A stretch of DNA of 64,000 nucleotides from Gammaproteobacteria bacterium (GCA_009845905.1 VXYS01000004.1:460548-524547); one strand, 5' to 3'. Shown: positions 7,248-33,679, counted from the stretch's first letter. Notes: generated by a model not told the origin, from the letters alone. Program-made: numbers and translations.

Positions 7248-7260
7248 TAGCACGACGGGG

Positions 7261-9193: not shown

Positions 9194-9213
9194 GTTGCCT
9201 TCGTACCCGGCTT

Positions 9214-9232: not shown

Positions 9233-9341
9233 TTTCAGGAATCTTCGGAAAAGCAGTCAACCGAAACCCTGCAAAGTCCTGTGATATAACCTGTTGCACA
9301 GGCAGCGTTCTGAACCATGCCAGTTCAGGAGGGGGGATCTC

Positions 9342-11798: not shown

Positions 11799-11879
11799 TG
11801 CCGGCCTTCTTGAGGGCCTGCGCGAGGCGATCTCCGGGAAGCAGGTCGCCTGAATCGACGAGCTGCCGCCGTTGACGCA

Positions 11880-13094: not shown

Positions 13095-13124
13095 GCTATG
13101 CGACGCCGCTGTGACGAGCCTCGA

Positions 13125-14588: not shown

Positions 14589-14683
14589 CTTTCCGATTCA
14601 GCGGCGAAAGCTAAAATGAACGGTCAAATCCACGCCCGACCGTCGAACCGAATGGTTGCCTGCCGGACAAACAGGGGACGAGC

Positions 14684-15832: not shown

Positions 15833-15847
15833 GCCGGCAGCGAATCC

Positions 15848-16954: not shown

Positions 16955-16994
16955 CCTAGCAGCCCGCGGCGGAACGAAGGAACTACCGGGGCGC

Positions 16995-18242: not shown

Positions 18243-18323
18243 CGCTTTCCAAGTCTATACGGCGTTCGCACGCGGGGCTCCGGCATGCGAAAATCGCGCC
18301 GGAACCCTCTGAGCACCCCTGAT

Positions 18324-19163: not shown

Positions 19164-19185
19164 AGCGGCCTTACATGTGCGGCCT

Positions 19186-19926
19186 ATGAGTAAGCGAAAG
19201 CGCGTACTGATTACCGGAGCTGCGTCGGGAATAGGCCTTGCCTGCGCGCGGAGATTCAAGCGGGAGGGATACGCTGTGCTGGGCATGGACCTCAATGCAA
19301 GTCCGGATCCATCGGTCTTCGACCGCTTCGAGCAGGCGGACGTAAGCAACGAGGAAGTGACGCAAAAGGCTGTGCAGGGCTTCGACGTCCCCTCAGGAGG
19401 GCTGGACGCGCTCGTTCACTGCGCCGGCATCGGTCAGTACGGCACCGTGACGGAACTGGATTCGCAAAGCTGGTCCAACGTCCTGCGGGTCAACCTGACT
19501 TCGGCCTTCCTTGTGGCTCGCGCAGTCATTCCTCACATGCAGAAACACGGGGGCGGGACGATAGTCACCATCGGCAGCGTGTATGGACGTCTGGCGCCCG
19601 AAAGAATGAGCGCCTATGCGGCGAGCAAGGCGGGAGTGGCGCAATTGACCCGGTGCATCGCCATCGATTACGCAAGCGACAACATTCGGGCGAATTGCGT
19701 TTGCCCGGGGCTGGTGACCACCCCGATGTCCTCGCATCTGAACGCGCCAGGCAAGGAAAAGCAGCTGGAGGCGTCGCTGAAGGCGCATCCGATGAAGCGC
19801 GCCGGGACTCCGGATGAAATTGCCGACACCGTTGCCTTCCTTTGCTCGGACGCGGCAAGCTACATCACGGGCCAGAACATTTACGTGGATGGCGGTTACA
19901 CGACCGGAAAGCAGTTGAACCCGTAG
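19186..19926 (+). CDS. SDR family oxidoreductase
   Basis: TGAASGIG cofactor motif and YAASKAG catalytic YxxxK. Start is ATG 19186 (or GTG 19177). Confidence 0.88.
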
Positions 19927-19946
19927 AGCCGGCTTCCGGCCAGCTA

Positions 19947-20078
19947 GCCGGGCGCAGCAATCGCGTCCTTGATCCAGCGTGCCGTGGCGGGGGCGCCAAT
20001 GTTGCGTACCTCAAGGCCTGATTGACTCTCATCTGCCCTGGCCACCAAGCGATTGTCGGCCGTTACCAACGAAAACCC
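19947..20078 (-). pseudogene. remnant of a PIN-domain (VapC-like) toxin, C-terminal ~44 codons only
   Basis: Directly after the antitoxin stop, and in frame with it, the sequence reads GFSLVTADNRLVARADESQSGLEVRNIG...* (stop 19944..19946). LVTADxRLA followed by an acidic stretch resembles PIN toxin C-termini. There is no start codon and no N-terminal PIN region. Confidence 0.4.
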
Positions 20079-20315
20079 TCAGCGATTGCGATCCTCGCGC
20101 AGCAGCTTGACACTGTCTGTTTGATTGCGCTCGATGGTGAGTGACTGGAGATCACGTATGCGGGCACGTAACTCCTCTATGCGCCCGAGGGGGTCCGCGC
20201 GTTGCGTCAACGTATGGCGGATTTCCCCTTCGAGGGAGCGGTGATTGGCCTTTGCCTGCGCCTTCAACTTCTCAATCACTCCATCGTCCAGGTTGCGAAT
20301 CGTTAGTGTGCCCAT
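20079..20315 (-). CDS. ribbon-helix-helix antitoxin (FitA/VapB-like)
   Basis: 78 aa starting at ATG 20315: MGTLTIRNLDDGVIEKLKAQAKANHRSLEGEIRHTLTQ, a typical RHH antitoxin N-terminus. The rest of track ORF 20079..20804 is antisense to the DUF899 gene. Confidence 0.75.
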   Translation of the reverse strand: MGTLTIRNLDDGVIEKLKAQAKANHRSLEGEIRHTLTQRADPLGRIEELRARIRDLQSLTIERNQTDSVKLLREDRNR

Positions 20316-20398
20316 TGCAGAACTCCAAAATAACTGCAATATGCTAGCAAATCGCTTGCATTTGGACAAGCGAGCGCCAAAGTAACGAACGCGCGCGT

Positions 20399-20998
20399 TT
20401 AGTAAACGTTTTGTCCGCCGTCGTCGAGGACTTCCGGGCGCTTCCAGTAGGAATATTGAGGGGTCCAGTCCTGCGCGTTCATGCCGGCCAGGGCGAGGAG
20501 GCTCCAGAGCGAGCAGTAGAGGTCGCCGGGTCCGAAGACGCAGGCGTTGAAGCGGAGAACCTTGTCCCCTTCGCGCTTGTAGACGACCGCACCGGGGTAG
20601 TTGTCCTGGCCGTCCACGACCGACTGCTCTCGAATATAGGCGCCGCCGCCGTGCGAGGCGAGCCTGAAGCGCCAGCCGCGCTCGTTGGCGAACCGCCGCT
20701 GCAGTTCCGGCGGATCCTTGGACAGCAGAACGACGGACATGGCGTTTTCCAGGTGCGGGAGAAAGCCGTTGAAACCGTCGGCCCAGACGGTGCAGTAGCG
20801 ACACCCCTGGCCCATGTTGTGGATCGCCAGCAGCGTGTCCCTGCCGGCGAACAGTTCAAGCAGACTCACCTCGCCCGACCCGTCGGCGAAGCGGTAGTCG
20901 GGCACCTCGGCGCCACGGCTCTGTTTCAGAAGCGTCCCGAGTTCCCCCGTAAGCTCGAAGATCTGCTGCTGAATTTCGGCAATGCGTTTTGTGGTCAT
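20399..20998 (-). CDS. DUF899 thioredoxin-like family protein
   Basis: About 199 aa from ATG 20998 (GAAGGAA RBS). Contains GQGCRYCTVWADGFNGFLPHLE and SHGG motifs typical of DUF899. Confidence 0.7.
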   Translation of the reverse strand: MTTKRIAEIQQQIFELTGELGTLLKQSRGAEVPDYRFADGSGEVSLLELFAGRDTLLAIHNMGQGCRYCTVWADGFNGFLPHLENAMSVVLLSKDPPELQRRFANERGWRFRLASHGGGAYIREQSVVDGQDNYPGAVVYKREGDKVLRFNACVFGPGDLYCSLWSLLALAGMNAQDWTPQYSYWKRPEVLDDGGQNVY

Positions 20999-21037
20999 CC
21001 GGATTCCTTCATCGCGTGCCGCCGGCACATCGTCATA

Positions 21038-21772
21038 TTACAAACCCAGCACGCGGTAGTCGCCGTTGACGATGAGAGCTGCGGAGACGTACACACCAAG
21101 CAGCGCGCACAGGATCCAGAAGGAATTGATCGCCACGATGTAGATGTACATGTCGCGCCGGCTCAGCAGCTTGTGCCGTCTCGCCACGAAAAAGCTGACC
21201 AGGTAAGTCGAGGTCATATAGACCCATTGCCAGGACAGCATCAGCCCGATGATCCCGGCCACCAGAGCGGAAGGGTAACCGACCGTGAATGCCGCATACA
21301 GCACCAGTGTCGGAACAAGCGTGACGAAACCGTTGGCGATGTCCACGTTGAAGCCGAAGGTGCGGCGGTCGGCATACGAGTCGTCGTAATAACAGTAGGC
21401 TGCCCAGGCATCGGCCCAGACGGCCGGCGACAGGACCAGTGTCAGCCTGATCCTTGCGGCGAAGAAACCGTGCGCTGGCGAGCGTCCCGTCCTGTGCTGC
21501 ATTTCGCGCCAGTATTCGGCGCGCGATCCGATCCTGTCGCGCAGGAAAAACAGGCAGATCTCCCAGTAGCAGATCAGGAGATTGACCGAAAAGAACAGGC
21601 AGAACAGAGAGTGAAGAAAATTCACCTCCCCGCTGGTCCGCCAGCGCACCAGGATGCCGAGGAGTGTGCCGCCTGCGACGACCAGAACAACGACCAGCGC
21701 CACCGGCACCGTCAGCCCCTTGCTTCCCCGGCCCTGTTCGGATGGCGGCAGGCTGGCGCGGCTGTCGGACAT
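21038..21772 (-). CDS. EXPERA-domain membrane protein (EBP/TMEM97-like), candidate sterol Delta8-Delta7 isomerase
   Basis: 244 aa with 4-5 hydrophobic segments. WAAYCYYDDSYADRRTFGFNVDIANGFVTLVP aligns by eye with human EBP [31 protein letters not shown]. INSFW aligns with the EBP MNALW (N193/W196) motif. Confidence 0.55.
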   Translation of the reverse strand: MSDSRASLPPSEQGRGSKGLTVPVALVVVLVVAGGTLLGILVRWRTSGEVNFLHSLFCLFFSVNLLICYWEICLFFLRDRIGSRAEYWREMQHRTGRSPAHGFFAARIRLTLVLSPAVWADAWAAYCYYDDSYADRRTFGFNVDIANGFVTLVPTLVLYAAFTVGYPSALVAGIIGLMLSWQWVYMTSTYLVSFFVARRHKLLSRRDMYIYIVAINSFWILCALLGVYVSAALIVNGDYRVLGL

Positions 21773-21825
21773 GTGCCCCCCTCACACTATCCACTGTGGC
21801 GGCGAGCGCATTCTAACTTGCCGCG

Positions 21826-21856
21826 TTGCGACGAAACGGGTCGCACACGATACAAT
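21826..21856 (+). promoter_or_regulatory. candidate promoter/operator for the sterol methyltransferase gene
   Basis: TTGCGA (21826..21831), a 19-nt spacer, then TACAAT (21851..21856). Palindrome TGCGAC-N7-GTCGCA (21827..21845) overlaps the -35 element and spacer. The spacer is longer than optimal. Confidence 0.3.
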
Positions 21857-21895
21857 CCCGCTCGTTACCTGCCGGCATATCGGGAGGCGCGGGGG

Positions 21896-22915
21896 ATGGA
21901 TGCGAAAGTAGCCAAACGTTCCCTTGGGAATCTGACCCAGGGGGAAGTGAAGTCGGTGGTCGATGACTACGTCGGGCTCCACGATGCCGGCGTTGAGCGC
22001 AAGAAGGAGCATTACCGGCAGCTCGTCAACAACTACTACGACCTCGTGACCGATTTCTACGAGTGGGGTTGGGGCAAGAGCTTCCACTTCGCTCCGCGGC
22101 GACGGGGCGAGAACTTCAAGGCATCACAGATCCGGCACCAGCATTTCCTGGCCGACAAGCTCTCGCTGAAACCGGGAATGCAGATTCTCGACGCGGGATG
22201 CGGTGTGGGCGGACCCATGGGCAATCTGGCCCGCTTTAGCGGCGCGAGTTTTGTCGGCGTCAACAACAACGCCTACCAGATCGAGCGCGCGAAAGTGCAC
22301 ACCCGGGACGTTGAGGCGCTGTGCCGTTTCATCAAGAGCGACTACATGAAGATTCCCCGGAGCGACGACCACTACGATGGCGCCATAAGCATCGAAGCGA
22401 TGCCCCACGCGCCGGACAAGACCGCCGCGTACGGCGAGATCTTCCGTCTTTTGCGTCCCGGGGCCGGTTTCGCGTGCTACGAGTGGTGTGTCACCGACGT
22501 TTTCGATCCTTCGAACACGGAACATCTGCGGATCAAGGAAGGAATCATGACGGGGTCGGCGCTACCCGACATCGCCGGCACGACAGAAGTGTGCGAAGCC
22601 GTGCGCGCGGCCGGGTTCGAGCTGCTCGAAGCCCGGGACCTTGCGCCCGATTCGGATCCGGAAACGCCCTGGTACCGGGCTTTGCAGGGCCGGGACTTCA
22701 CTCTGGCGAGCATCCCGCGCACGCCCTTGGGCCGCGCCCTGACCAATCTGATCCTGCGAATTGCGGAGCCGTTGCGACTCGCTCCGCAAGGCGCGCGGGA
22801 GGTCAGCACGTTCCTGAACTGGGGCGCGGACACGCTCGTTGAAGGCGGCCGGACCGGCATCTTTACGCCGATGTACTTTTTCCTGGCCCGCAAACCCCTG
22901 TCCGGGGGAGACTGA
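21896..22915 (+). CDS. sterol C-24 methyltransferase (ERG6/SMT1 family)
   Basis: 339 aa from ATG 21896 (GGGAGG RBS 8 nt upstream). Contains YYDLVTDFYEWGWGKSFHF (SMT region I), the SAM site LDAGCGVGGP, IEAMPHAP and YEWCVTD. The first 495 codons of track ORF 20411.. are antisense to other genes and are rejected. Confidence 0.85.
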   Translation: MDAKVAKRSLGNLTQGEVKSVVDDYVGLHDAGVERKKEHYRQLVNNYYDLVTDFYEWGWGKSFHFAPRRRGENFKASQIRHQHFLADKLSLKPGMQILDAGCGVGGPMGNLARFSGASFVGVNNNAYQIERAKVHTRDVEALCRFIKSDYMKIPRSDDHYDGAISIEAMPHAPDKTAAYGEIFRLLRPGAGFACYEWCVTDVFDPSNTEHLRIKEGIMTGSALPDIAGTTEVCEAVRAAGFELLEARDLAPDSDPETPWYRALQGRDFTLASIPRTPLGRALTNLILRIAEPLRLAPQGAREVSTFLNWGADTLVEGGRTGIFTPMYFFLARKPLSGGD

Positions 22916-22917
22916 CC

Positions 22918-25900
22918 TCACGCGGCGCGCGGCCTGATCCGAACCGCGTCCGGCTCCTTCTCCTTCGAAGCGGCGGTCAGTTCGAGTCGGGTCCGGCGGC
23001 GTTGCTCGTACAGGCCGAGCGCGCGCAGCGGGAAATACTGTCGGTACAGGACGTAGTCCAGCAGCGCCGTGCGGAAGAAGACGCCGGCCATGTCCTGTTT
23101 CGGCCAGCCGCCATCCGCTTCCTGGGCGTTGAGCAGAAAACGTGCGCCGCGCGCAATCGCGGTCCAGTTGGACTCATCTGCCTCCAGCAGCGCTAGCAGG
23201 GCCCAGGCGGTCTGGATGACCTGGCTTTCCTCGTGCGCAACATAGCGGCCCGTCAGGCAACCGCTGTGGTGTTCGCCCCATCCGCCGTCATCGCGCTGCC
23301 GGTCGAGCAGCCAGCGGCAGGCCAGGCGCAGCGCCGGATCGCTCGGTCCCGCCCCGGCGGCAACCAGGCCCCTGATGCCGAACAGGGTCCCGTAGATGTA
23401 CTGAACGCCCCACACGCCACGCCATGAGCCATCGCGCTCCTGGGTCTTGCGCAGCCAGGCGGCGCCCCTTGCGATGGCCCGCGCCGCCGGCGGATCAAGT
23501 GCCTGCGGGAACCGGCGCCCGCAGGCGGCCAGCGCCTCCAGACAGGACCCCGTGCACTCGACGTAGGAATTTTCGGTCATCGATTCGCCGAACATCTCGG
23601 CGGGGTTCAGCCACTCGAGACCGATCCGCGAGCGTCGTGCTTCATAGCTGCCGAAGCCGCCATCGCGGTTCTGGCTTCGCAACATGAACCGGACCGCCTC
23701 ATTCAGCGCCGCCTTGTCCGCGTCATCACCTCCTGCGGCGAGTATCCCGAGCACGGCTTCGGCGGTGCAGTCGCTCACCGGCCAGCCATGCCAGCCGCCG
23801 GGAAAACACCAGCCTCCCTTCGGGTCGGCGCGAAAGGCCTCGCGATACCCGTCGAAGCTGGTGCGGATCTGTTGTGAGCGCAGGAAGCCGGCGCCCTTGC
23901 GGACAGCGTCGTTAATTTCATCGGACCCGGGCGCGTCCGCGAGCGCCTGCACGGAAAAGGCGGTGTCCCAGGTGCTGCTTCTGGCTCCGGTGACCCGCGC
24001 GCCGAGCTCCTCGTCTTCCCAGAACCACCCATCGAGCCCGGCGAGCGCCGTACGGCAGTCGGCATCGTCCCGATCGTGCAGCCACAAGGCCAGAATGTTC
24101 AGAAAACCGCTGACCGGCGAGATGCTGCTGTGACTCGTGGTCTGCAACTCCCACTGGATCTGGCGGACCAGCTTCTCAAGGCAGCGGCGGCGCAGGCGCT
24201 TGCTGTGGATTCGTTCATACAGGCGCGCCAACGCGTATCCGGCTCGCAACCACACGCTCGGTCGCACAAACAGGTCGGCGTCGCGCAGGCGGTTGCGGGC
24301 GGAAGAAAAATCAAGGCGGTCAAACTCTTTTCCGAACAATTCTTCGCGCAGGGATTCGATCACGGGCGTGACCGGCGCCTGGAACCGATGCGCGTAGATG
24401 GACGCCATCGCCATGTAAATGAGCCGCGTATGGCAGTACCAGTTCGACGGATGCAACGGCAACCCGCGCGGCAGCTTCCACAGTTCCGGAAGAATTGCGT
24501 TCACCCCGCGCCAGTCATACAGATTGAGCAGCGCCAGCCAGAATTTCCCCCAGCTCGGGACCGCAAGCACGTCCTCTTCGGCGAGGAAACGGCCGGCCGG
24601 TGCGACAAGCGGGTCGTCAGGCTCCACGCCGAGCAGTCTCGACGCGACATAAACCAGCACGGTCACGAACAGGTGGGGCGGCGAGTGCTCGTGCAATCCC
24701 CACGCGCCGTCCGCCAGGCGGGTGCATTCGAACGAGCGCAGGATGCGCCGCCGCCGGCCGGAGTCTATCGGCTCACCGAGAATGTGCTGCAGCAGCACGT
24801 ATTGCGCCGTGAGCATGGGGCACCAGACCATCTCGCCTTCCCAGGCGCCGTCCTCGCCCTGAAGGTCCAGAAGGCGCGCCGCTGCCCTGCGCAATGCAGG
24901 CTCCGCGTCGGGCGACGCGGATTCGCCCGTCCGCGGGGCGCCGGCTCGGCCGTCGTTCGAGGACATGGAAGCGAGAAGCGCGCGCGACAACGCCCTGCGG
25001 GCCTCCCGGTCCTTGCCGCCGCCTCCGTCCCTGGCCTCCTTCAGCTTGCGAATGCCACGCAAGAACCAGCGGGCGCGGGCAACGAGCGGGAAAACGATGT
25101 AGCGTGCCCGCCGCCAGGCCAACTGTCTGAATGATGAACGAACCACGCCCGCAACGGCCCGGATCACCGTAGCTAGCGTTGCGAGCACAAGGTGGGTCAT
25201 CGAGGTTTCCTCGCAGGCGAGCAGCCGCATGGTCCGGTCGCGAACGACGCCATGCGCCCGCCAGTTGCGGTAGATCGCGCGCCGGAGCGCTGCCGCTTCG
25301 AGTCGATGATCGGCAAAGACCTCGTACAGCCCCATGGCGAGCAGCTCCGGGGCGCGGGTCGCCCTGAATCGCCGGACGGCGAAATTCCTGAAGCTCCCGC
25401 CTTCCGCCAGCGCGGCGGCGTCGCCGAAACCGAGCGTCATGCCCACCGCCGTCATCGGATGATAGTGCCCGGCCGCATCGCCGATCAGCACCCGCCTCGA
25501 CGTGCCGTACGAGACGCGCGGCCTGAGTTCATTGGCCGCCGCGTGGAATTTGCCCGACTTCAGCGCCGAGAGATAAGCGGGTCGCAATGCTTCCGGCAGG
25601 ACCCGAGCGTAAGACTCGGCCAGCAGGCCGGTCCTGTCGCGCGAGGTCCATTGCTCAAGCGGCACATCGACAACGATCCTGACGCAATGCTCGCCCAGCG
25701 GATATCCGAGAATCGGACCCGGGCCGCCGAGCATCACGTATCCGTAACCGGCCGGCTGCAGACTCACGCCTTCAAGGGTCACGCCCACCATCCGCGAGCA
25801 GGCCTTGCGCCGCATCGGCAGGCCCAGCGACCGCCGCACGGCGGAAGACCGGCCGTCGGCGCCGACAATCCTGTCGGCGGCGAGGTGTTCGCTGGAGCCG

Positions 25901-26394
25901 CCGCGGGTGAAGACCACGCCGTCGTCTTCGACCTGCCTTACCCGCGCATTGACAAGAAAGTCGATGCCCGGCTCATTGCGGACGGCTTCATGCAGACGCG
26001 CCACGAGGACCTCATGGTCGCAGGCTATACCCCGCCCCCCGCCGGGGTACGGGAGCACGATCGGTTCCGAACCGTCCTCCGGAAACACCACGAAGCCCTG
26101 ACCCTCGGTGCTGCGCAGCGGTGGATCGAGGCGGATGCCGGCATCGCGCAACATGCGCACGGCCAGCGGATGCAACCACTCGCCGGCCAGCCGCGTGGCC
26201 GCCCTGGGGTTCGCCTCAAGCAACGCCACGCGCGCGCCCTTGCGCGCGTGAGCGAGCGCGCAATAGCTGCCGACAGGCCCCGCGCCTACGATGATTACGT
26301 CGTAACGCGGGGAGGCGGCGCTCAACTGAATACGCTCGCTTGCGAGCGGCGGCGATAGCGGACCCGGCACGGTACCGTGGGGCCCGTCACCCAA
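22918..26394 (-). CDS. fusion protein: squalene monooxygenase (epoxidase) N-terminal domain + oxidosqualene cyclase C-terminal domain
   Basis: Single uninterrupted 1158-codon ORF. N-terminal part: YDVIIVGAGPVG, LAGEWLHP, IGDAAGHYHPMTAVGMT (squalene-epoxidase-like). C-terminal part: GWPVSDCTAEAV (OSC catalytic Asp motif), YVECTGSCLEAL and QW-type repeats RDGGFGSY, DDGGWGEH, ADGGWPKQ. There is no ATG at the 5' end, so the start is TTG 26394, GTG 26370 or TTG 26325. Confidence 0.85.
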   Translation of the reverse strand: MGDGPHGTVPGPLSPPLASERIQLSAASPRYDVIIVGAGPVGSYCALAHARKGARVALLEANPRAATRLAGEWLHPLAVRMLRDAGIRLDPPLRSTEGQGFVVFPEDGSEPIVLPYPGGGRGIACDHEVLVARLHEAVRNEPGIDFLVNARVRQVEDDGVVFTRGGSSEHLAADRIVGADGRSSAVRRSLGLPMRRKACSRMVGVTLEGVSLQPAGYGYVMLGGPGPILGYPLGEHCVRIVVDVPLEQWTSRDRTGLLAESYARVLPEALRPAYLSALKSGKFHAAANELRPRVSYGTSRRVLIGDAAGHYHPMTAVGMTLGFGDAAALAEGGSFRNFAVRRFRATRAPELLAMGLYEVFADHRLEAAALRRAIYRNWRAHGVVRDRTMRLLACEETSMTHLVLATLATVIRAVAGVVRSSFRQLAWRRARYIVFPLVARARWFLRGIRKLKEARDGGGGKDREARRALSRALLASMSSNDGRAGAPRTGESASPDAEPALRRAAARLLDLQGEDGAWEGEMVWCPMLTAQYVLLQHILGEPIDSGRRRRILRSFECTRLADGAWGLHEHSPPHLFVTVLVYVASRLLGVEPDDPLVAPAGRFLAEEDVLAVPSWGKFWLALLNLYDWRGVNAILPELWKLPRGLPLHPSNWYCHTRLIYMAMASIYAHRFQAPVTPVIESLREELFGKEFDRLDFSSARNRLRDADLFVRPSVWLRAGYALARLYERIHSKRLRRRCLEKLVRQIQWELQTTSHSSISPVSGFLNILALWLHDRDDADCRTALAGLDGWFWEDEELGARVTGARSSTWDTAFSVQALADAPGSDEINDAVRKGAGFLRSQQIRTSFDGYREAFRADPKGGWCFPGGWHGWPVSDCTAEAVLGILAAGGDDADKAALNEAVRFMLRSQNRDGGFGSYEARRSRIGLEWLNPAEMFGESMTENSYVECTGSCLEALAACGRRFPQALDPPAARAIARGAAWLRKTQERDGSWRGVWGVQYIYGTLFGIRGLVAAGAGPSDPALRLACRWLLDRQRDDGGWGEHHSGCLTGRYVAHEESQVIQTAWALLALLEADESNWTAIARGARFLLNAQEADGGWPKQDMAGVFFRTALLDYVLYRQYFPLRALGLYEQRRRTRLELTAASKEKEPDAVRIRPRAA

Positions 26395-27731
26395 CTGCCG
26401 TAATTCGGCGCGGGAAAATCCGCAACGGGATCAAAATCGAAGCGGTCCAGCAGCACCGCCCAGATCGCCTTCAGTTGCAGCATGGCGAATTTCTCCCCCA
26501 TGCAACGGTGCTTGCCCCCGCCGAAGCCGATCAGCGTGTAGAGGTGCTGCTTGTTCTCGCTGCGCGGCGGAGCGAACCGTTCGGGATCGAATCGCTCGGG
26601 ATCGGCGAACAGGCCCGGCAAACGGTGCGAGACCGCCGGAGACACGACGGCCAGGGCGCCGGCGGGCACCGTGTGGCCCGCATACTGCAGAGGCCGGAGC
26701 ACCTTGCGGATCAGCAGTATCAGCGGCGGGTGCAGCCGCTCGCATTCGCGCACCGTGTATTCCAGCGCCACCTGCCGCTTCAGTCCGTCGAGGCTCATGG
26801 CCCCCGCCTCACCGTAAATCTCGCGCATCTCGGCGCGAATCCGCGCCACGCAGGCGGGATCGCGGAACATCTCAAGACCCATCCAGCTTGCGAGCACCGC
26901 GCTGGTGTGCTGGCCGGCGAACAGGACCGTCAGCAGTATCCCGGTCACCTCGTCGTCGCTCAGGGTCCGGCCGTCCTTGTAGCGGGACTGCATCAGCGCC
27001 TGCATGAAATCTTCCGGCGCGGCGCCCGAACCCCGCCGGCCCTCCATGATTCGGACAAGAATCCCGGCTATCCTGCGGCGCGCGCGGTCGCGACGCCGAT
27101 GCGCCGGGATCGGCAGCCTGGGCAGGAAGAAGCCGATCAGGTTTATGCCCTCCTCGAGGTCGTGGTACGCCTGGGCGAATCCCGAATCCACCTGATCCCG
27201 TACCTCCTGACCCAGCAGGCAGCGGCTGGCGATGTTCACGGTAAGCCGGTTCATCGCCGCCGGCAGGTCCAGCGTTCCTTCCTCTCCGAGCGCGTCGGCA
27301 AACCGGGCGGCCTCCTCATACATGATTTGCGCGTACCTGCGCATGGACGCATCGCGCAGCGCCGGATACAGGAACCCCAACTGCTCCGCCATGATCTCGG
27401 GGGCCACGTCGTAGGCCACGCCGCGCCCGAAGATAGGCACCGTGAACTGATAGACGGCACGGGCGTCAAGCTGGTCCTCGGGCGCGCGGAAGTAGCAGTC
27501 GTGGGCTTCCGGCCCGGTGAACAGCACGAATTCGCGGGTCCCCAGCCGGAAACGGACCAGTTCGCCGTGCTCACGCCAGCCGCGATCGAGCATCGCCACC
27601 GGGTCCCTCTGGAACTCGGGCAGATGACCGAGCAACGGCCAACCGCCGGAGAGTTCGGGAATCGGCTTGCCCGGCGGCGCCGCGGGCCGCGCCGAACGCA
27701 GGGTGGCTGCACTGTCGGTATGGTTCGGCAC
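26322..27731 (-). CDS. cyp51: cytochrome P450 sterol 14-alpha-demethylase (CYP51)
   Basis: Heme loop FGGGKHRCMGEKFA. Also PELSGGWPLLGHLPEFQRDP, VYQFTVPIFGRGVAYD and FAGQHTS, which match the CYP51 pattern I recall from Mycobacterium CYP51. Start GTG 27731 has a GAGGA RBS 5 nt upstream. Track ORF start 27794 would overlap the reductase gene. Confidence 0.85.
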   Translation of the reverse strand: MPNHTDSAATLRSARPAAPPGKPIPELSGGWPLLGHLPEFQRDPVAMLDRGWREHGELVRFRLGTREFVLFTGPEAHDCYFRAPEDQLDARAVYQFTVPIFGRGVAYDVAPEIMAEQLGFLYPALRDASMRRYAQIMYEEAARFADALGEEGTLDLPAAMNRLTVNIASRCLLGQEVRDQVDSGFAQAYHDLEEGINLIGFFLPRLPIPAHRRRDRARRRIAGILVRIMEGRRGSGAAPEDFMQALMQSRYKDGRTLSDDEVTGILLTVLFAGQHTSAVLASWMGLEMFRDPACVARIRAEMREIYGEAGAMSLDGLKRQVALEYTVRECERLHPPLILLIRKVLRPLQYAGHTVPAGALAVVSPAVSHRLPGLFADPERFDPERFAPPRSENKQHLYTLIGFGGGKHRCMGEKFAMLQLKAIWAVLLDRFDFDPVADFPAPNYGSWVTGPTVPCRVRYRRRSQASVFS

Positions 27732-27739
27732 GTCTGTCC

Positions 27740-28837
27740 TCAATACACGAACGGGACCATCGAATACGGCACTCGCTCCCTGTAGCGCCCCCACAGTTCG
27801 CCGTACTTGGCGCGGCAGCGCCGCTCATCGCGGCGCGAGCGATGCCACAGCAGCCCCGCAAGCCAGGCCGGCAACACATACGGCGCCCAGGATGCAAAAC
27901 CGGTGGTGAGCGCAAACGCGAGGTACATACAGATCTCGCCGCTGTAGTTGAGATGCCGCCCGATTCCCCAGAACCCGGACACCAGCAGGCGCCCGTCGAG
28001 GGACTCGGCGGGCCGGCCCCAGATTCTGATTGCAGGGTTGCGCTTGAAGCGATGCTTCTGCGCGTTGGCGCCCCGGAACACCCAGAAGCCGAAGGCATAC
28101 AGCAGCACGATGCCGGCTGCGGCGAGGGGGCCCAGCGGCGGACCGGATGCGTCAACCAGCCACCAGCCGACGATGCAGTAGAAGAAGGGCACAAACACGT
28201 AGTCGCCCCACACCAGCATCCATCCGAAGCGCTCGCTGATGATGTCCCAGGTGTGGACCATGCCCCTTTCGAACTGGAAGTAATTGAGCACGTACACCCA
28301 CGTCAGGACCTGGTAGAGGGCCATCGCCAGCGTCAGATAGCCGTAGGTTTCGTATTGCACTACGGCGAACGACGTATTGAACAACGCCAGCCCGATGAGC
28401 GAGGGGCGGTAGCTGAACATCTTGAGGTCCACCCCGAGCAGGGCAGGATTGAGTTCCGCACCGAAGAAGAAACCCCGCCAGAACCCCGGCGATTCGGCAG
28501 GCTTCCGCGCGCTTCGCCAGTACAGCCAGCCGGAAAACGCGAATGCGAACACGTTCGCCGCCACGAAGAGCGCGAAAAAGTGCGTATACAGCAACGACAG
28601 TGAGAACGCGCCGGAGACCTGGGCGATGCCTGCCGCAAGGACGGTGAGCAGCAAAAGCGCCAGACCGTTGATCTTGTAGGTGATTGACTTGCCGCCGAGA
28701 TCCGGCCCCCTGATCCGGCGACCCGGCACGAGTATCGATCCCAGAAACAGTGCGCCGATAAAGACGGCGATCATTACCGCCGCCTGGAGCAGCAGCGCGC
28801 CCGAAAGCGCAAACGCAGTCGCCGGCAGCTCAGGCAT
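27740..28837 (-). CDS. ERG4/ERG24-family sterol reductase (probable C-14 reductase)
   Basis: 365 aa, multi-TM. Family-defining C-terminus LLVSGFWGIGRHLNYSGEI...RDERRCRAKYGELWGRYRERVPYSMVPFVY. Confidence 0.85.
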   Translation of the reverse strand: MPELPATAFALSGALLLQAAVMIAVFIGALFLGSILVPGRRIRGPDLGGKSITYKINGLALLLLTVLAAGIAQVSGAFSLSLLYTHFFALFVAANVFAFAFSGWLYWRSARKPAESPGFWRGFFFGAELNPALLGVDLKMFSYRPSLIGLALFNTSFAVVQYETYGYLTLAMALYQVLTWVYVLNYFQFERGMVHTWDIISERFGWMLVWGDYVFVPFFYCIVGWWLVDASGPPLGPLAAAGIVLLYAFGFWVFRGANAQKHRFKRNPAIRIWGRPAESLDGRLLVSGFWGIGRHLNYSGEICMYLAFALTTGFASWAPYVLPAWLAGLLWHRSRRDERRCRAKYGELWGRYRERVPYSMVPFVY

Positions 28838-29960
28838 CGGCGCCGCCGTCCGCGGTCGTCATCCCGGGCGCGGGCATCGCCGTGCCGTTCTCCCTGGCCA
28901 GGTACTCCTGCCACTTGCGCACGGTCACGTTCTGGAAAGCCCGCACCGCCGGGTTGAACTCCAGGGGGCGGGCGTTGAAGTGCCGCTCGTAACCCTCCTG
29001 TTCGGCTTCGAGCGCAAATCCGTCCTGGGAAAGCAGCGGACCGATGAGCACACGGTTGGAGATCTTGAGGACCGTGGTCATTGCAAGCCTGGGGAAGCGG
29101 ATCGGCAGCAACGGAACCTTCAGGGACTTGAAGTAGAACAGGAAGAAGGCCCGGCTGGTGCGTTCGTCGACGGGCAGCACGAAACACCAGTGCTTTATCG
29201 CGTCGTCGGTGTTCGACCACTGGTAGGGATACTGATAGCAGAGCTTCATCGAATTGGTATCGATCCGCTCGCGATCGACGAACATTCCGGAAAAACGCCC
29301 GCGGCCGACGCTGGTGTCGTAGGCCACGTGCACGTCGTCGCCGACCGTCTCGCAGCGCGTGAGCACGGCGCCGTCGAAGGGGCGATAGCGGCGGTGCAGC
29401 CAGGCGTGAGTGAAATCGCTGACGTTGTCGATCACCATCGAGTGGTGCGCCGACCAGGTGAAACTCAGCGGCACGCAGGCCCAGCGGCCCTTGCCCTCCA
29501 GCTCGGGAATATCGGGAATCCGGCGCGATTGAGCCCGTTCCGGGTTCCCTGGGAACAGCCAGATCAGGCCGTAGCGGACCTTTACCGGATAGGTCCTGAG
29601 CGCGACATTCGGCATGCTTCCCCCAAGCATCTCGTGCGCGGTCTCGGCAAGCCGTCCGTCCGGGTCGTATTTCCAGCCGTGGTAGGCGCACACCAGCCGG
29701 CAGCCTTCCACCTGGCCCAGCGACAGCTTGAGCTGGCGATGGGCGCAGCGGTTGTCCATGGCGTGAAACGAACCGTCCTCGGCCCGGAACAGCGCGATCG
29801 AACGCTTCCAGAAAATCACCTCGACCACGCTCCCGGGCTTGATTTTGCGCACTTCCTCGACCGCGTACCAGTAGTCCGGGTCCATGCCCGCCGCGCGCAC
29901 CTTCTGGCGCAGGTTGACGGCCTCCTCGAAGCCCGGCGGTCCTGCCGTCACCGTGTTCAT
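28830..29960 (-). CDS. sdmA: Rieske-type oxygenase, SdmA-like (bacterial sterol C-4 demethylation)
   Basis: Rieske motif CAHRQ...CAYHGWKY and iron motif DNVSDFTHAWLH. Assigned as SdmA by its position between an SdmB-like reductase and the sterol reductase/CYP51/OSC genes. Confidence 0.7.
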   Translation of the reverse strand: MNTVTAGPPGFEEAVNLRQKVRAAGMDPDYWYAVEEVRKIKPGSVVEVIFWKRSIALFRAEDGSFHAMDNRCAHRQLKLSLGQVEGCRLVCAYHGWKYDPDGRLAETAHEMLGGSMPNVALRTYPVKVRYGLIWLFPGNPERAQSRRIPDIPELEGKGRWACVPLSFTWSAHHSMVIDNVSDFTHAWLHRRYRPFDGAVLTRCETVGDDVHVAYDTSVGRGRFSGMFVDRERIDTNSMKLCYQYPYQWSNTDDAIKHWCFVLPVDERTSRAFFLFYFKSLKVPLLPIRFPRLAMTTVLKISNRVLIGPLLSQDGFALEAEQEGYERHFNARPLEFNPAVRAFQNVTVRKWQEYLARENGTAMPAPGMTTADGGADA

Positions 29961-31069
29961 GATGCGCCCCCATCGGCAGTTACCTGCGTACTCCGGTCCG
30001 GCACGGCGTTTTCCTCGTGTACCGCACCGTTCGCGCGCGGGCGTTTGGCCTGCGGATTGGTGATCGCCTTGCGCTCGTGATAGTGAAACGCGTACGCCTC
30101 ATGCACGGCGTCGCGGATGCGGGTCGGCCGGTAGCCGAGTTCGCTTTTCGCCTTGCCGAGATTGGCGTGACGGCGCTTTTTCAGAAGGCGGATGGCGCCG
30201 GGCGTGAAACGCTGGGGAAAGTCGGGGTGCACGCGGCTCAGGTAGAAGCTCGCCGCCTCCGAGAAGACATACATCAGGTTGGCCGGAATCCGCCGGCGCG
30301 GACGCGGGATGCCCGTAACCTCCTCGTAGAGATCAAGCATGCCGGAGATGGTCTTGTATTCGCTGCTGAAGATGTACTTCTCGCCCGGGCGTCCGTTGCG
30401 CATGCACAGCAGGTGACCTTCGACGATGTCGCGCGCCGCCACGAACTCGAACCCGCCGTCCACGTAGGCATGGAGCTTGCCGTCGGTGAAGTCGCACAGG
30501 GTCCGGCCCAGGCGCGACGGGAAAAAGTCCGCGCCGCCCACGACCGCACAGCAGGTTGCGACAACGACGTCCTGCCCTGCCGACGCCGCGCGCCAGCACT
30601 CGTGCTCGACGAGCATCTTGCTGCGCTCGTACGGCATCGTGCGCTCCATGGGGTAGAACTGCATGGTCTCGTCGCTTGGAGCGGACGGATCGTCGAGATC
30701 GTAGCCAACCGCGCTGAACGAGCCCGTGACCACTACCCGCCCGGCTTCGTACTCCCGCGCCGCCTGCAGCACGTTGCGGGTGCCCAGCACGTTGCACTCA
30801 TACAACTCGCGGCGATGCGCGCGAGTGCCGTCGATGGTGGAGACTTTCGCGGCGACGTGATAGACGCCCTGGCAACCCTCGATCGCGCGCCGGGTGGCGT
30901 TCAGGTCCCGGATATCGCCGTAAGCGCGTTCAACATCGAGGCCTTCCAGGCCCTCGTTGTTGTCCTCGTGCCTCAGCAGCACACGGATGCGAACGCCGTC
31001 GTCGAGCAGGCGGCGCACAAGATTGGCGCCCACGTGTCCGGCCGCGCCGGTTACGAATACGGGATTCAT
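29957..31069 (-). CDS. sdmB: NAD(P)-dependent epimerase/dehydratase-family reductase, SdmB-like (bacterial sterol C-4 demethylation)
   Basis: N-terminus MNPVFVTGAAGHVGANLVRRLL, an extended-SDR Rossmann fold. ATGA overlap with the Rieske gene. Assignment rests on operon context. Confidence 0.7.
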   Translation of the reverse strand: MNPVFVTGAAGHVGANLVRRLLDDGVRIRVLLRHEDNNEGLEGLDVERAYGDIRDLNATRRAIEGCQGVYHVAAKVSTIDGTRAHRRELYECNVLGTRNVLQAAREYEAGRVVVTGSFSAVGYDLDDPSAPSDETMQFYPMERTMPYERSKMLVEHECWRAASAGQDVVVATCCAVVGGADFFPSRLGRTLCDFTDGKLHAYVDGGFEFVAARDIVEGHLLCMRNGRPGEKYIFSSEYKTISGMLDLYEEVTGIPRPRRRIPANLMYVFSEAASFYLSRVHPDFPQRFTPGAIRLLKKRRHANLGKAKSELGYRPTRIRDAVHEAYAFHYHERKAITNPQAKRPRANGAVHEENAVPDRSTQVTADGGAS

Positions 31070-31197
31070 GGAAGATCCGCGAATTTCTTGCGATGGATAG
31101 GAAACAACCCCCGGTTTCCGGGCAAAAATTCGGACGCGCGTACTCTAACACTACGTCCCGCGACCGTGCGGTAAGTCGAACGGGCGAAGGCGTCGCC

Positions 31198-32250
31198 TTA
31201 TCTTTCCGGTTTCGGGACGTGGATCTTCGTTTGCTGAACCGGCGCGGGCCGCGGCGCCGGCCTTGGAGCGGGCGCGGCGGGTCGTGGCGCAGGGGCAGAC
31301 GGCCGCGAAGTTGGCATAGTCGGCCGTGAAGCTGGCGCAGTCGGTCGTGAAGTTGGCGCTGTCGGTCGTGCAGCCACCCTAGCGGGGCGAGAGGTTGGTG
31401 CAGCGCGTCGTGCTGCCGGTGCGGCGGGTCGCGTGTTCGGCGCCTGTCGCCTCGTATCCGCGACTCTCCGCGTTTTCGGCGCAACCGTCCGGGTGCGGGA
31501 ATTATCGGCCGTTCTGGGTACGGCCGGCCTGGTTCGCACAGCCGGCTTCGTTCGCGCGACCGGCTTCGTGCCGGTCACGGTGGAGGGCTGCCGCCGCGCA
31601 TCGCGGGAACGACTCAGGCGGCGTGCATCGCGGGCGTAGCCGCGGGGCGGCGCCGCGAGAGGCCGCCGGCGGTAGGTAGGCGCATAGATCACCGTGGTCG
31701 GATTCACAGCCTGCCTTTGTGGCGAATAAGTCCCGGCGCCGATTTCGTCGTCGTAAACGACGGGGTCGGGATATTCTTCCGCTTCGCTCAGCGCAACGGA
31801 GAAGTCTCCCGAATTGCCCTCCGCTTCTTCGGCGGCCTCGCGGGCGGAAGTCAGCTCGTCGCGAAGCGCCGCTATCTCGTCGCGCAGCGTCCTGGCTTCC
31901 TCGGCGCTGCGTTCCGCCTCGGAAGCGGCGTCCTCGCTCAACTGCTGCATTTCAAGCCGAATAGCGGAGATTTCGTCGCGCAGAACGGAAGCGTCCCGGG
32001 AAGCACGCCTGACTTCCTCGTTCGCAGCGTCGCGCACGGACCGCATATCCTCGCGCAAGGCGGCAATATCGTCGCGGAGATAACGGGCCTCGTCAAGTGC
32101 GCTTTCAAACTCGGAAACCACCGCCGCGCGCCGGTCGTCCGCAGCGGCGCGAGCTTCGGCCTTGTCCGCATCGTCCGAACCGGCGCACCCCGTCGCGACC
32201 AACACCCAGGCGGCAAGCGCACAGACCTCGTGTCGGATTGATGTATTCAT
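31198..32250 (-). CDS. lipoprotein with a coiled-coil region and a basic Pro/Arg/Thr/Ala-rich tandem-repeat tail
   Basis: Signal peptide plus lipobox (AWVLVATGC). Repeated LRD(D/E)I(A/S)A(L/I)R heptad-like segments. C-terminal RPTAPTSRPTAPASRPTMPTSRPSAPAPRPAAPAPRPAPRPAP. No family recognised. Confidence 0.6.
   Translation of the reverse strand: MNTSIRHEVCALAAWVLVATGCAGSDDADKAEARAAADDRRAAVVSEFESALDEARYLRDDIAALREDMRSVRDAANEEVRRASRDASVLRDEISAIRLEMQQLSEDAASEAERSAEEARTLRDEIAALRDELTSAREAAEEAEGNSGDFSVALSEAEEYPDPVVYDDEIGAGTYSPQRQAVNPTTVIYAPTYRRRPLAAPPRGYARDARRLSRSRDARRQPSTVTGTKPVARTKPAVRTRPAVPRTADNSRTRTVAPKTRRVADTRRQAPNTRPAAPAARRAAPTSRPARVAARPTAPTSRPTAPASRPTMPTSRPSAPAPRPAAPAPRPAPRPAPVQQTKIHVPKPER
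31297..31380. repeat. 21-bp tandem repeat, about 3.5 copies, inside the lipoprotein gene
   Basis: Units are AGACGGCCGCGAAGTTGGCAT / AGTCGGCCGTGAAGCTGGCGC / AGTCGGTCGTGAAGTTGGCGC / TGTCGGTCGTGCAGCCACCCT. They encode the RPT(A/M)P(T/A)S heptapeptide repeats. Confidence 0.85.
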
Positions 32251-32362
32251 GAACTTCAGTATAGCCCCGGCAGCACGCAGCCGGACTTCGATCGGCCTGC
32301 CCGTTGATTTATCGTCATTTCTCGCATAGTTTCATATACAGGCACTTGGTAAAGGACTGAAC

Positions 32363-33679
32363 ATGACCAACAGAATTGTCCGCTTGTCCACTCGCGACGT
32401 GCGTTTCCCCACGTCCGATCACCTGGACGGATCGGACGCAACAAACAAGGATCCGGACTACTCCGCTGCGTACATCACGCTGGAGACAGAAAAGGGCGAT
32501 CGGGGCTTCGGCCTGATCTTCACCATCGGCCGAGGCAACGATATCTGCTGCAAGACCGTCGAGGCGATGAGCCACCTGGTCATCGGAAAGGACCTCGACG
32601 ATATCCGGACCGATATCGGCGGATACTACAACGAACTTCGTTCCGACAGCCAGATCCGCTGGCTCGGACCGGAGAAAGGCATTGTTCACATGGCCGCCGG
32701 CGCAATCGTGAACGCCGTGTGGGACATGTGGAGCCGCGCCGAGGGCAAGCCGGTGTGGCGCCTGCTGTCGGAAATGGACCCGGAAGAGTTCGTGAACTGC
32801 GCGGACCTGCGATACGTCGAGGACGTGCTGACACGCGACGAGGCCCTGGCGATCGTCAAAAGGAACATCGCAACGCGAGACCGGCGAATCCGCCATCTCG
32901 AGGAACACGGCTACCCCGCCTACACGATGTCGGCCGGTTGGCTGGGCTACGACGACGAGAAAATCCGGAGGTTATGCAGGGAAGCCGTACAGAAGGGATT
33001 CCGCCATATCAAGCTGAAAGTCGGAGCAAATGTTGACGACGATATTCGCCGCTTGAGGAACATCCGGGAAACTGTTGGTTACGACGTCATCCTCATGGTG
33101 GACGCCAACCAGGCCTGGGAAGTGAATGAAGCGATTGAGTGGATGCGGCGTCTGGCTCCCTACAAACCATGGTTCATCGAGGAACCGACCAGTCCCGACG
33201 ACATCATGGGCCACAGGAAGATCAAGGAGGGCATCGGAGAAATCAGGGTAGCCACGGGCGAGCATTGCGCCAACCGCATCCTCTTCAAACAGTTCATCGC
33301 CAGCGACGCAATCGACGTGGTCCAGATCGACGCATGCCGCCTGGCCGGGCTCAACGAAATACTTACCGTATTTCTGCTCGCCGCAAAGTTCGGCAAGCCC
33401 GTGTGCCCTCACGCGGGCGGTGTTGGCCTGTGCGAGTATGTGCAGCACCTATCGATGATCGACTACGTCATGATTTCCGGAGAAATCGGCGAACGAGTCA
33501 TCGAGTTTGCAGATCATCTCCACGAGCACTTCGAGGACCCCTGCGTGGTCCGAAAGGGCGCTTATCTGGCGCCCACCGCGCCCGGCTTCAGCGTAAGAAT
33601 GCGCGAACAATCCGTCGCGGACTACGAGTATCCCGGCGGCTCCCAGTGGCGTGCACGCGTTGGGCGCACAGGTGGGTGA
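32363..33679 (+). CDS. L-fuconate dehydratase-like enolase-superfamily enzyme
   Basis: 438 aa. N-terminus RDVRFPTSDHLDGSDATNKDPDYSAAY is typical of fuconate dehydratases. Also HIKLKVG, MVDANQAW and IEEPT metal/acid-base motifs. Confidence 0.85.
   Translation: MTNRIVRLSTRDVRFPTSDHLDGSDATNKDPDYSAAYITLETEKGDRGFGLIFTIGRGNDICCKTVEAMSHLVIGKDLDDIRTDIGGYYNELRSDSQIRWLGPEKGIVHMAAGAIVNAVWDMWSRAEGKPVWRLLSEMDPEEFVNCADLRYVEDVLTRDEALAIVKRNIATRDRRIRHLEEHGYPAYTMSAGWLGYDDEKIRRLCREAVQKGFRHIKLKVGANVDDDIRRLRNIRETVGYDVILMVDANQAWEVNEAIEWMRRLAPYKPWFIEEPTSPDDIMGHRKIKEGIGEIRVATGEHCANRILFKQFIASDAIDVVQIDACRLAGLNEILTVFLLAAKFGKPVCPHAGGVGLCEYVQHLSMIDYVMISGEIGERVIEFADHLHEHFEDPCVVRKGAYLAPTAPGFSVRMREQSVADYEYPGGSQWRARVGRTGG

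Follow-up and report, generated by a model that had tools for sequence, protein, structure and literature searches.

A probable de novo sterol biosynthesis cluster of the sponge-symbiont kind in an uncultured gammaproteobacterium, with a candidate EBP-like membrane protein

How far could a bacterium take squalene towards a side-chain alkylated sterol with the genes of a single locus, and which protein would carry out each step? This question is raised by the interval 20399-32250 of a 64,000-nucleotide stretch of gammaproteobacterial DNA (GCA_009845905.1, VXYS01000004.1:460548-524547; this whole stretch is hereafter called the window), which an earlier reading made without database searches (the sequence-only reading) had described as a compact locus for sterol biosynthesis. 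We consider the locus, with a probability of about 0.8, to be a chromosomal cluster for de novo bacterial sterol biosynthesis, from an uncultured gammaproteobacterium that is probably associated with a sponge. It is a bacterial sterol cluster of the published sponge-symbiont kind and not a new one. The only part of it for which no annotation was found in the available parts of the literature is a gene for a membrane protein of 244 residues, here called TM244.

The interval comprises nine real open reading frames (ORFs). Those that concern the sterol pathway, together with the two domains of the fused gene, are the following, and the others are listed with the flanks further below.

29957-31069, minus strand: SdmB-like NAD(P)-dependent short-chain dehydrogenase/reductase (SDR), first gene of the operon
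28830-29960, minus strand: SdmA-like Rieske non-haem iron oxygenase, putative C-4 methyl oxidase
27740-28837, minus strand: ERG4/ERG24-family sterol reductase
26322-27731, minus strand: CYP51 (GTG start according to the public gene call; ORF open to 27794)
22918-26325, minus strand: squalene epoxidase (SQE) fused to oxidosqualene cyclase (OSC) in a single ORF (TTG start; open to 26394)
about 25144-26304, minus strand: squalene epoxidase domain within the fusion ORF
about 22993-24897, minus strand: oxidosqualene cyclase domain within the fusion ORF
21896-22915, plus strand: ERG6-type sterol C-24 methyltransferase (SMT)
21038-21772, minus strand: TM244, a polytopic membrane protein of 244 amino acids

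The five minus-strand genes sdmB-sdmA-erg24-cyp51-(sqe::osc) form one translationally coupled operon. The stop codon of sdmB and the start codon of sdmA share the sequence ATGA, sdmA and the ERG4/ERG24 gene overlap by 8 bp, the latter lies directly upstream of CYP51 with a gap of 8 bp between its 3' end and the CYP51 start, and the CYP51 stop overlaps the TTG start of the fusion (26325) as TTGA. The SMT gene converges on this operon, with 2 bp separating the stop codons, and TM244 is divergent from SMT. The GC content of the sterol genes is 0.64-0.67, compared to 0.60-0.67 over the window. All six ORFs that the sequence-only reading had assigned to the operon and the SMT were recovered at the positions it gave, with every motif it quoted (VSDCTAE, the haem loop, the reductase tail, YEWGWGKSFHF and LDAGCGVGGP), and its gene-by-gene assignment of functions was upheld by searches with hidden Markov models (HMMs) and against the sequences of solved structures.

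The first two steps would be carried out by the fusion protein. Its N-terminal domain matches the Pfam models SE (PF08491; 78.7 bits, E 5e-22, cut-off 20.1) and FAD_binding_3 (77.6 bits), contains the stretch GAGPVG of the GxGxxG Rossmann type and aligns with human squalene monooxygenase (SQLE, 6C6N) at 88 bits. The cyclase domain is recognized by SQHop_cyclase_N and SQHop_cyclase_C of Pfam (183.8 and 204.3 bits, E 5e-54 and 3e-60) and falls among the oxidosqualene cyclases and not the squalene-hopene cyclases, as had been read from its motif: it scores 746.6 bits with the oxidosqualene cyclase model TIGR03463 versus 286.2 with the hopene cyclase model TIGR01507, and in the Protein Data Bank (PDB) 453 bits with human lanosterol synthase (1W6K) versus 180 with squalene-hopene cyclase (1GSZ). 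The motif itself, VSDCTAE at 23758-23778 (residues 873-879 of the fusion), is of the xxDCTAE type and not DxDDTA. Alignment to human OSC 1W6K gives A381, H449 and V453 at the product-determining positions. In bacterial OSCs only the last of these three classic positions tracks the product, Val going with lanosterol and Ile with cycloartenol (PMC4919349), and so the Val at human position 453 indicates a cyclase of the lanosterol type. Epoxidase and cyclase are joined in a single reading frame in 21 of the 26 related loci. We infer that substrate may be channelled within the fusion.

Removal of the 14-alpha methyl group and reduction of the double bond it leaves would fall to the next two genes of the operon. 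The P450 scores 200 bits with the Pfam model p450 (E 6e-59), and its best 56 PDB matches are all CYP51 (193-371 bits), headed by the Methylococcus capsulatus enzyme 6MCW (371 bits) and followed by that of M. tuberculosis (316 bits), the first P450 outside CYP51 coming at 162 bits; the assignment to CYP51 in the sequence-only reading is thereby borne out. The haem loop FGGGKHRCMGEKFA lies at 26484-26525, and FGGGKHRCMG, YQFTVPIFGRGVAYD and AGQHTS are present as well; we take YQFTVPIFGRGVAYD to be the B'-helix signature of CYP51, AGQHTS its helix-I motif and the haem Cys loop a CYP51 signature. No ferredoxin domain is fused to the P450. The reductase matches PF01222 (ERG4_ERG24) at 248 bits (E 1.6e-73, cut-off 27), has its tail motif at 27743-27832 and comes closest, among solved structures, to 4QUV, the Methylomicrobium alcaliphilum delta(14)-sterol reductase (226 bits). 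This top match and the position beside CYP51 make delta-14 the most likely regiospecificity, rather than delta-7 or delta-24(28). CYP51 and ERG24 had been called eukaryote-like parts of the locus, a description that these results do not support, the closest solved relatives of both being methanotroph enzymes.

For C-4 demethylation the operon offers two candidates. The best NCBIfam match of the SdmA-like protein is by far NF052579 (4beta-methylsterol monooxygenase; 402.2 bits, E 1.6e-120), over its full length (residues 17-356 on positions 4-345 of the 351 of the model); Pfam finds Rieske (4e-20) and VanA_C (4e-13), and the cluster ligands CAH...CAYH are present. The SdmB-like protein, which is 74-97% identical across the syntenic clusters, has NF052578 (SdmB) as its best NCBIfam match (296.4 bits, E 3.7e-88), scores 233.9 bits on the HpnA model, which is also below the HpnA cut-off, matches Epimerase (2e-33) and 3Beta_HSD (4e-18) of Pfam, and shows the motifs GAAGHVG and YERSK. 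It is predicted to be the partner in C-4 demethylation, as a decarboxylating dehydrogenase/reductase. The pair may remove one or both C-4 methyl groups. SdmAB of the methanotroph M. capsulatus removes only one C-4 methyl, while SdmA/SdmB of Calothrix removes both (PMC10202945), and the SdmB homologues of equivalent clusters are 52-54% identical to Calothrix SdmB and 43-45% to that of M. capsulatus. Elsewhere, the Rieske/VanA gene at 14684-15832 (plus strand) was considered as an SdmA paralogue and rejected, as it is 27% identical to SdmA, and this over the Rieske domain only; it is probably an aromatic O-demethylase and not a sterol enzyme. A second additional Rieske/VanA_C oxygenase gene lies just beyond the left end of the window (2726-3868 of locus L069).

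The methyltransferase allowed a prediction at the level of single residues. It passes the cut-off of Pfam Sterol_MT_C (PF08498; 79.8 bits, E 1.6e-22, cut-off 21.7), has S-adenosylmethionine-dependent methyltransferase domains too, carries YEWGWGKSFHF at 22058-22090 and LDAGCGVGGP at 22187-22216, and is 43% identical to yeast Erg6. We aligned it to Erg6 and used the list of conserved residues (Regions I-IV and others) and the position rules of the preprint by Brown & Welander (10.64898/2025.12.19.695621); the Erg6 reference sequence agrees with that preprint at each of the 28 positions numbered there. Each of the 25 residues that functional SMTs have in common is retained, in line with the earlier SMT call. 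Positions 81, 83 and 249 are Tyr, Trp and Ser. According to the same preprint, propylation requires Gly249, Phe at 81 and/or 83 promotes C30 products, and G249S mutants of a propylating SMT keep the C29 products and lose the C30 products (10.64898/2025.12.19.695621). The SMT of the window thus differs from propylating SMTs in having Ser instead of Gly at 249 and no Phe at 81 or 83, and because of these residues it is predicted to give 24-methyl, perhaps 24-ethyl, but not 24-isopropyl side chains. More than 3,760 SMT homologues were found, the nearest of which (88-91% identical) come from metagenome-assembled genomes (MAGs) associated with sponges.

Put together, these assignments would give the following route. 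Squalene, supplied from elsewhere in the genome, would be converted to 2,3-oxidosqualene by the FAD-dependent epoxidase domain and this to lanosterol by the fused cyclase domain (DCTAE, Val453). CYP51 would then remove the 14-alpha methyl group, the ERG24-type reductase would saturate the resulting delta-14 bond, the Rieske oxygenase SdmA together with the SDR SdmB would take away one or both C-4 methyl groups, and SMT would place one methyl, possibly two, onto C-24 of the delta-24 side chain. TM244 would most plausibly shift the nuclear double bond from delta-8 to delta-7, by protonation and deprotonation via a carbocation. The expected products would be C28, possibly C29, sterols with a 24-methyl(ene) or possibly a 24-ethyl(idene) group and a delta-8 or delta-7 nucleus, and they may keep a 4-alpha methyl. 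As a C-5 desaturase, delta-7 and delta-24 reductases and the like are missing from the window, they would resemble fecosterol or episterol rather than cholesterol- or ergosterol-type end products. The order of the steps, the extent of C-4 demethylation and the expression of the pathway are likewise what we infer.

This gene content and order are known. Kelly et al. (2022) found what they named clusters of steroid genes (CSGs) in 115 of 537 MAGs from Ircinia sponges, spread over 10 phyla and showing evidence of horizontal gene transfer along with purifying selection; a core of ERG24-CYP51-LSS has a 'DFR' gene upstream on the same strand and SMT or FDFT1 on the opposite strand (PMC9531527). The window has the same core, with DFR (the equivalent of SdmB) upstream and, at the 3' end, SMT on the other strand, so that the order sdmB-sdmA-ERG24-CYP51-(SQE::)OSC with a convergent SMT matches that by which the CSGs of sponge symbionts are recognized. 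The differences are that the pipeline of that study left SdmA/SdmB and the epoxidase fusion unannotated, and that some CSGs have ERG2, whereas the window has none. The clusters of Brown et al. (2023) come still closer: in their Supplementary Data 1, SMT, one gene matching both ERG1 and ERG7, ERG11, ERG24, sdmA and sdmB are consecutive, on symbiont contigs from A. aerophoba, P. ficiformis and T. swinhoei and in a coral-reef Nitrospira MAG (PMC10070321). Clusters such as Aplysina aerophoba JGIcombinedJ30088_10000835 and that of a Theonella swinhoei Chromatiales MAG have the genes and the order of the window and are sponge-associated likewise, and the SMT beside the fusion is about 42% identical to yeast Erg6, like that of the window. 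The A. aerophoba cluster differs in having a second, propylating SMT (Gly249), whereas the window has one SMT (Ser249). 'Fused SMO/OSC homologs' are named in the same paper, and its in vitro assays showed that such bacterial SMTs methylate desmosterol, with 24-methyl, 24-ethyl and, in three cases, 24-isopropyl products (PMC10070321). TM244 is not named among the homologues in the accessible part of their supplementary table.

Two other bacterial systems share part of the chemistry. With the pathway of Methylococcus capsulatus and Methylomicrobium (SQMO, OSC, CYP51, reductase, SdmAB) the locus has the steps up to C-4 demethylation in common, and these methanotrophs supply the closest solved structures of the P450 (6MCW) and the reductase (4QUV); SdmA and SdmB are the best-scoring NCBIfam models for the two C-4 proteins of the window. 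Their epoxidase and cyclase are separate genes, the CYP51 of M. capsulatus is fused to a ferredoxin, and we know of no SMT in methanotrophs. A further difference is that SdmA and SdmB of the window lie far under the equivalog cut-offs, besides the single C-4 methyl taken by the methanotroph pair (PMC10202945). Enhygromyxa salina and Calothrix sp. NIES-4105 (Lee et al. 2023) likewise combine C-4 demethylation of the SdmA/B type with eukaryote-like downstream steps including C-8 isomerisation, and the Calothrix pathway forms one gene cluster (PMC10202945). In these bacteria recognizable homologues carry out the C-8 isomerisation, and the pathway leads, at least in E. salina, towards cholesterol-type sterols; they are not known to alkylate the side chain, and they are not of the sponge-symbiont cluster type.

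Such clusters are also widespread. In a scan of one genome per GTDB species, which yielded 64 SMT loci, the whole cluster was found in the same order in at least 25, from Gamma- and Alphaproteobacteria, Thermodesulfobacteriota, Binatia, Rhodothermales, Chloroflexota/Dehalococcoidia and Arenicellales. Its proteins are 52-97% identical among the syntenic loci and 52-83% between phyla. The sequence-only reading had considered the combination of genes unusual, a view that we do not share, as the type is published (PMC9531527; PMC10070321) and common in sponge-symbiont MAGs. The window itself lies on a 1.17-Mb metagenome scaffold (ENA ERZ23491782, ENGE20-1_SAMN12347683), and the closest genomes are gammaproteobacterial MAGs (CO36388bin_2, SB0673_bin_2 and others), in which the cluster proteins are 90-97% identical. 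Based on the scaffold name and these nearest relatives, the source is probably an uncultured gammaproteobacterium associated with a sponge. Among the genes flanking the cluster are those for a TonB-dependent receptor, several ABC transporter components, HpaB, oxygenases of the VanA type, a GH3 glycosidase and an aldose epimerase, in agreement with the ordinary catabolic context noted before.

Several findings speak against a complete and functional pathway of this kind. The cyclase score of 746.6 bits stays under the curated cut-off of TIGR03463 (851), for which reason we regard the protein as a divergent member of the OSCs. The scores of the SdmA-like (402.2 bits) and SdmB-like (296.4 bits) proteins both fall short of the 600-bit equivalog cut-offs, which places the latter outside the membership of its model; judged from their sequences, the two are homologues of the equivalogs and not proven isofunctional with them. 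The 64 kb contain no squalene synthase and no P450 redox partner, nor a C-5 desaturase or a delta-7 or delta-24 reductase; no further sterol genes were found there beyond the cluster, with its single SMT. The claim of a 'near-complete route' has to be qualified in this sense.

What, then, is TM244? The sequence-only reading had called it EBP/EXPERA-like, and this call found no help in the HMM libraries and gained its backing from fold and profile-profile evidence. Of two AlphaFold2 (AF2) models, that built on 30 close sequences reached a predicted local distance difference test score (pLDDT) of 81.5, and that built on 50 diverse ones a pLDDT of 94.0 and a predicted template modelling score (pTM) of 0.89. 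For both, human EBP, whose fold is a bundle of five transmembrane segments around a sterol cavity, was the sole PDB match of Foldseek with a template modelling score (TM) above 0.3: against 8W0R, E was 0.014-0.028 and TM 0.53-0.62, and against 6OHT TM was 0.52 and 0.60, with Foldseek probabilities of 0.97-1.00 and TM of 0.52-0.62 when normalised by either length. Sequence searches of the PDB, whether started from the protein alone or from a profile of 30 sequences, returned nothing relevant, the matches to anthrax toxin receptor and OTCase (E 0.2-1.7) being chance. In profile-profile comparison with hhalign, the broad 50-sequence TM244 family scored 36.5 against vertebrate EBP (probability 58%, E 1e-4), compared to 14.8+/-2.5 (maximum 22.6) for 100 column-shuffled EBP profiles, 15.4+/-2.7 (maximum 21.9) for 100 block-shuffled ones and 16.6 for the reversed EBP profile; the score thus lies 8-9 standard deviations over the shuffled controls. 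The signal appears only with this broadened family profile; when the narrow bacterial alignment was used, neither single-sequence EBP nor the EBP profile gave a significant score.

The relaxed alignment of TM244 with EBP is collinear and of full length. It pairs residues that are invariant or nearly so in both families, namely E71/E80, W123/W101, Y126/Y104, D130/D108, Y133/Y111, F139/F117, D144/E122, N147/T125, the QxYGxxxY motif, N216/N193 and W219/W196. Apart from the fold, TM244 has in common with human EBP (the delta8,delta7-isomerase; 6OHT, 8W0R; PF05241) the patterns W-x2-Y-x3-D-x2-Y-x5-F-x4-[DE], Q-x-Y-G-x3-Y and N-x2-W; it differs in an overall identity of about 14%, an insertion of about 31 residues after the second transmembrane segment (TM2), the replacement of His76 by Ile, and the bacterial nature of the family. 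In the EBP active site (H76/E80/E122/T125-126/N193/W196), hhalign pairs E80, N193 and W196 with identical residues, E122 with Asp, T125 with Asn and H76 with Ile. Two of ten distant family members have sub-threshold matches to Pfam EBP (E 0.041 and 0.7). TM244 is very probably a remote protein of the EXPERA superfamily.

The family is small, with 431 clusters when grouped at 90% identity and, in a set of 1.84 billion representatives, 330 when grouped at 50%, and the handful of named members are all annotated 'hypothetical'. Several distant members (P0336, P0338, P0343, P0365 and P0386) have low-complexity extensions that are acidic, basic or rich in poly-Thr/Asn, and members with such extensions sit on contigs of 1-3 kb (including L075). 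These extensions and short contigs suggest that the family also occurs in uncultured microbial eukaryotes. According to Hoshino & Gaucher, bacterial SMT often occurs with three uncharacterised genes, and EBP would have arisen within eukaryotes (PMC8237579).

The genomic neighbourhood ties TM244 to sterols. A homologue lies within 10 kb of SMT in 18 of the 64 SMT loci, in taxa as far apart as Gammaproteobacteria, Latescibacterota and Dehalococcoidia. In five unbiased look-ups that started from TM244 homologues (L070-L074), the gene stood beside sterol genes in three. It adjoins an SMT-containing cluster in L072, and in L071 (10763-20675; ENA ERZ25070844, a 1.98-Mb contig) it is the last gene of a sterol cluster variant without SMT, in the order SQS_PSY squalene synthase, sdmB, sdmA, ERG24, CYP51, SQE::OSC, an amine-oxidase-family gene (HpnE-like?) and TM244. 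In L070 (6495-10735; ENA ERZ23495471 scaffold_959), where the homologue carries the name Bryobacterales, its companions are an ERG4_ERG24 reductase, a Rieske/KshA_C oxygenase and a DUF1295 protein; a cyclase is not found nearby, and the module may serve to modify sterols rather than to synthesise them. These surroundings link TM244 to sterol metabolism in general rather than to methylation of the side chain in particular.

Against TM244 as an EBP relative with isomerase activity stand its failure to match any Pfam or NCBIfam model even at E<=10, including the Pfam EBP/EXPERA model PF05241, the weak Foldseek E values (0.014-1.0), the alignment of the catalytic His76 of EBP to Ile67, and the two look-ups (L073 and L074) in which it lies away from any sterol gene. 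To these is added a Pseudomonadales locus (L030) in which a bona fide ERG2_Sigma1R gene (2.5e-63) is next to SMT and which has a TM244 homologue as well. In another locus (L013) ERG2 is in the place of TM244. Because of these two ERG2 loci we keep the assignment of TM244 as the delta-8/delta-7 sterol isomerase tentative, at somewhat less than even odds. That ERG2 and TM244 exclude each other, as in non-orthologous displacement, was rejected since L030 carries both. The identity of TM244 as plant cyclopropyl isomerase CPI1 was considered because the OSC has His at position 449, and was dropped as V453 indicates lanosterol; to our knowledge, CPI1 shares none of the motifs of TM244. As for L030 itself (6317-19569; MAG OZ244871.1), it is a larger isoprenoid/sterol island with DXP synthase, polyprenyl synthase, SMT, ERG2_Sigma1R, an amine-oxidase-family flavoprotein, the TM244 homologue, a YhgA-type transposase and a 700-residue fusion of GPP34 (Golgi phosphoprotein 3-like) to a cytochrome P450, which is odd for a bacterium.

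Among the rival explanations, the one that survives best, at a chance not far short of even, gives TM244 another activity: a delta-8 to delta-8(14) shift, a side-chain delta-24(28)/delta-24(25) shift that would prepare or resolve the products of SMT, or non-catalytic sterol binding or sensing like that of TMEM97/EBPL. The loss of His76 would fit such a role, as would the genuine ERG2_Sigma1R of L030, the sterol-modifying setting of L070 with its KshA-type oxygenase, and six loci (L026, L027, L036, L042, L049 and L052) in which TM244 adjoins SMT with no other cluster genes within 10 kb. A strictly side-chain role is contradicted by L071, where TM244 occurs in a sterol cluster without SMT, and another activity in general has to be set against the five of six EBP active-site positions that are kept or conservatively replaced and against the window, in which neither ERG2 nor any other isomerase candidate besides TM244 was found.

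A second, improbable explanation leaves the enzymes as they are and shortens the pathway: the cluster would make only early or partly processed sterols (lanosterol, 4-methyl delta-8 sterols, as in methanotrophs), and SMT would act on sterols of the host sponge. The single C-4 methyl removed by M. capsulatus SdmAB (PMC10202945) and the window's lack of a redox partner and a squalene synthase would suit it, and Brown et al. raise the idea of sterol synthesis shared between host and symbiont and report Chlamydiae with SMT and no other sterol genes (PMC10070321). The SMT gene, however, ends 2 bp from the operon, stop to stop, in an arrangement that recurs across phyla, and the SdmB of published clusters is nearer to that of Calothrix (52-54%), which with SdmA achieves full C-4 demethylation, than to that of M. 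capsulatus (43-45%).

The remaining explanation, that eukaryotic DNA (sponge or algal) ended up in a bacterial scaffold by mis-binning or mis-assembly, or was transferred from the host very recently, might be entertained because ERG24, CYP51, SMT and EBP are textbook eukaryotic enzymes and distant TM244 relatives look eukaryotic, but it is effectively refuted by the intron-free, overlapping genes of an operon with GTG and TTG starts, by a GC content (0.64-0.67) within the range of the window (0.60-0.67), by the 1.17-Mb scaffold with its TonB receptor and ABC transporter neighbours, by the methanotroph origin of the closest solved homologues of the P450 and the reductase, by SdmAB as bacterial-only chemistry, and by the bacterial clades in which Brown et al. 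place such SMTs and OSCs, with Whokaryote calling all their contigs prokaryotic (PMC10070321).

The other ORFs of the interval do not belong to the cluster.

20399-21028, minus strand: DUF899/AhpC-like gene, downstream of TM244
31198-32250, minus strand: lipoprotein-like coiled-coil/Pro-rich ORF, upstream of sdmB

The DUF899 gene had been included in the locus by the sequence-only reading and was rejected as a cluster member since it is conserved only in the nearest relatives. The ORF 31198-32250, an unrelated one at the right end of the interval that had gone undescribed, was likewise rejected, its homologues occurring only in the closest relatives L004, L005 and L038; it encodes 350 amino acids with a lipobox-like LVATGC N-terminus, coiled-coil repeats and a long Pro/Arg/Ala-rich tail, and Pfam and library searches gave no family match. 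The single tRNA called by ARAGORN, a tRNA-Gly(GCC) at 31387-31456 (plus strand) inside the Pro/Ala/Arg-rich coding sequence of this ORF, is a false positive; neither at the gathering score nor at E<=10 does Rfam place a tRNA at this position, and it detects no RNA families in the 64-kb window. The ORF 21033-21794, in another frame and longer than that of TM244, is a high-GC artefact. At 20079-20315 (minus strand) lies a gene for a 78-residue FitA-like ribbon-helix-helix protein of the antitoxin type, conserved in L004 and L009; the neighbouring genes of the public annotation include no PIN/FitB-like toxin. A sigma-70 promoter scan of 19900-32500 gave 0 sites versus 1.7 expected, which is uninformative for a high-GC genome, and terminator-like matches in the same region are mostly within genes.

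The window is thus a further instance of a published cluster layout and not a discovery, and what is useful in it is the EBP-fold TM244 and the residue-based prediction for the SMT. In its fullest form, the proposal for TM244 would be that it founds a very divergent EXPERA/EBP branch without the catalytic His, serving as the nuclear double-bond isomerase of the sponge-symbiont sterol pathway and having relatives in microbial eukaryotes, which we consider possible but rather doubtful as a whole. If true, EBP-type sterol isomerases would not be a purely eukaryotic invention, and the published bacterial 24-alkylsterol clusters would encode one step more than has been annotated. TM244 is a testable candidate for the step left unassigned in the published cluster annotations, and it would extend the EXPERA superfamily into bacteria.

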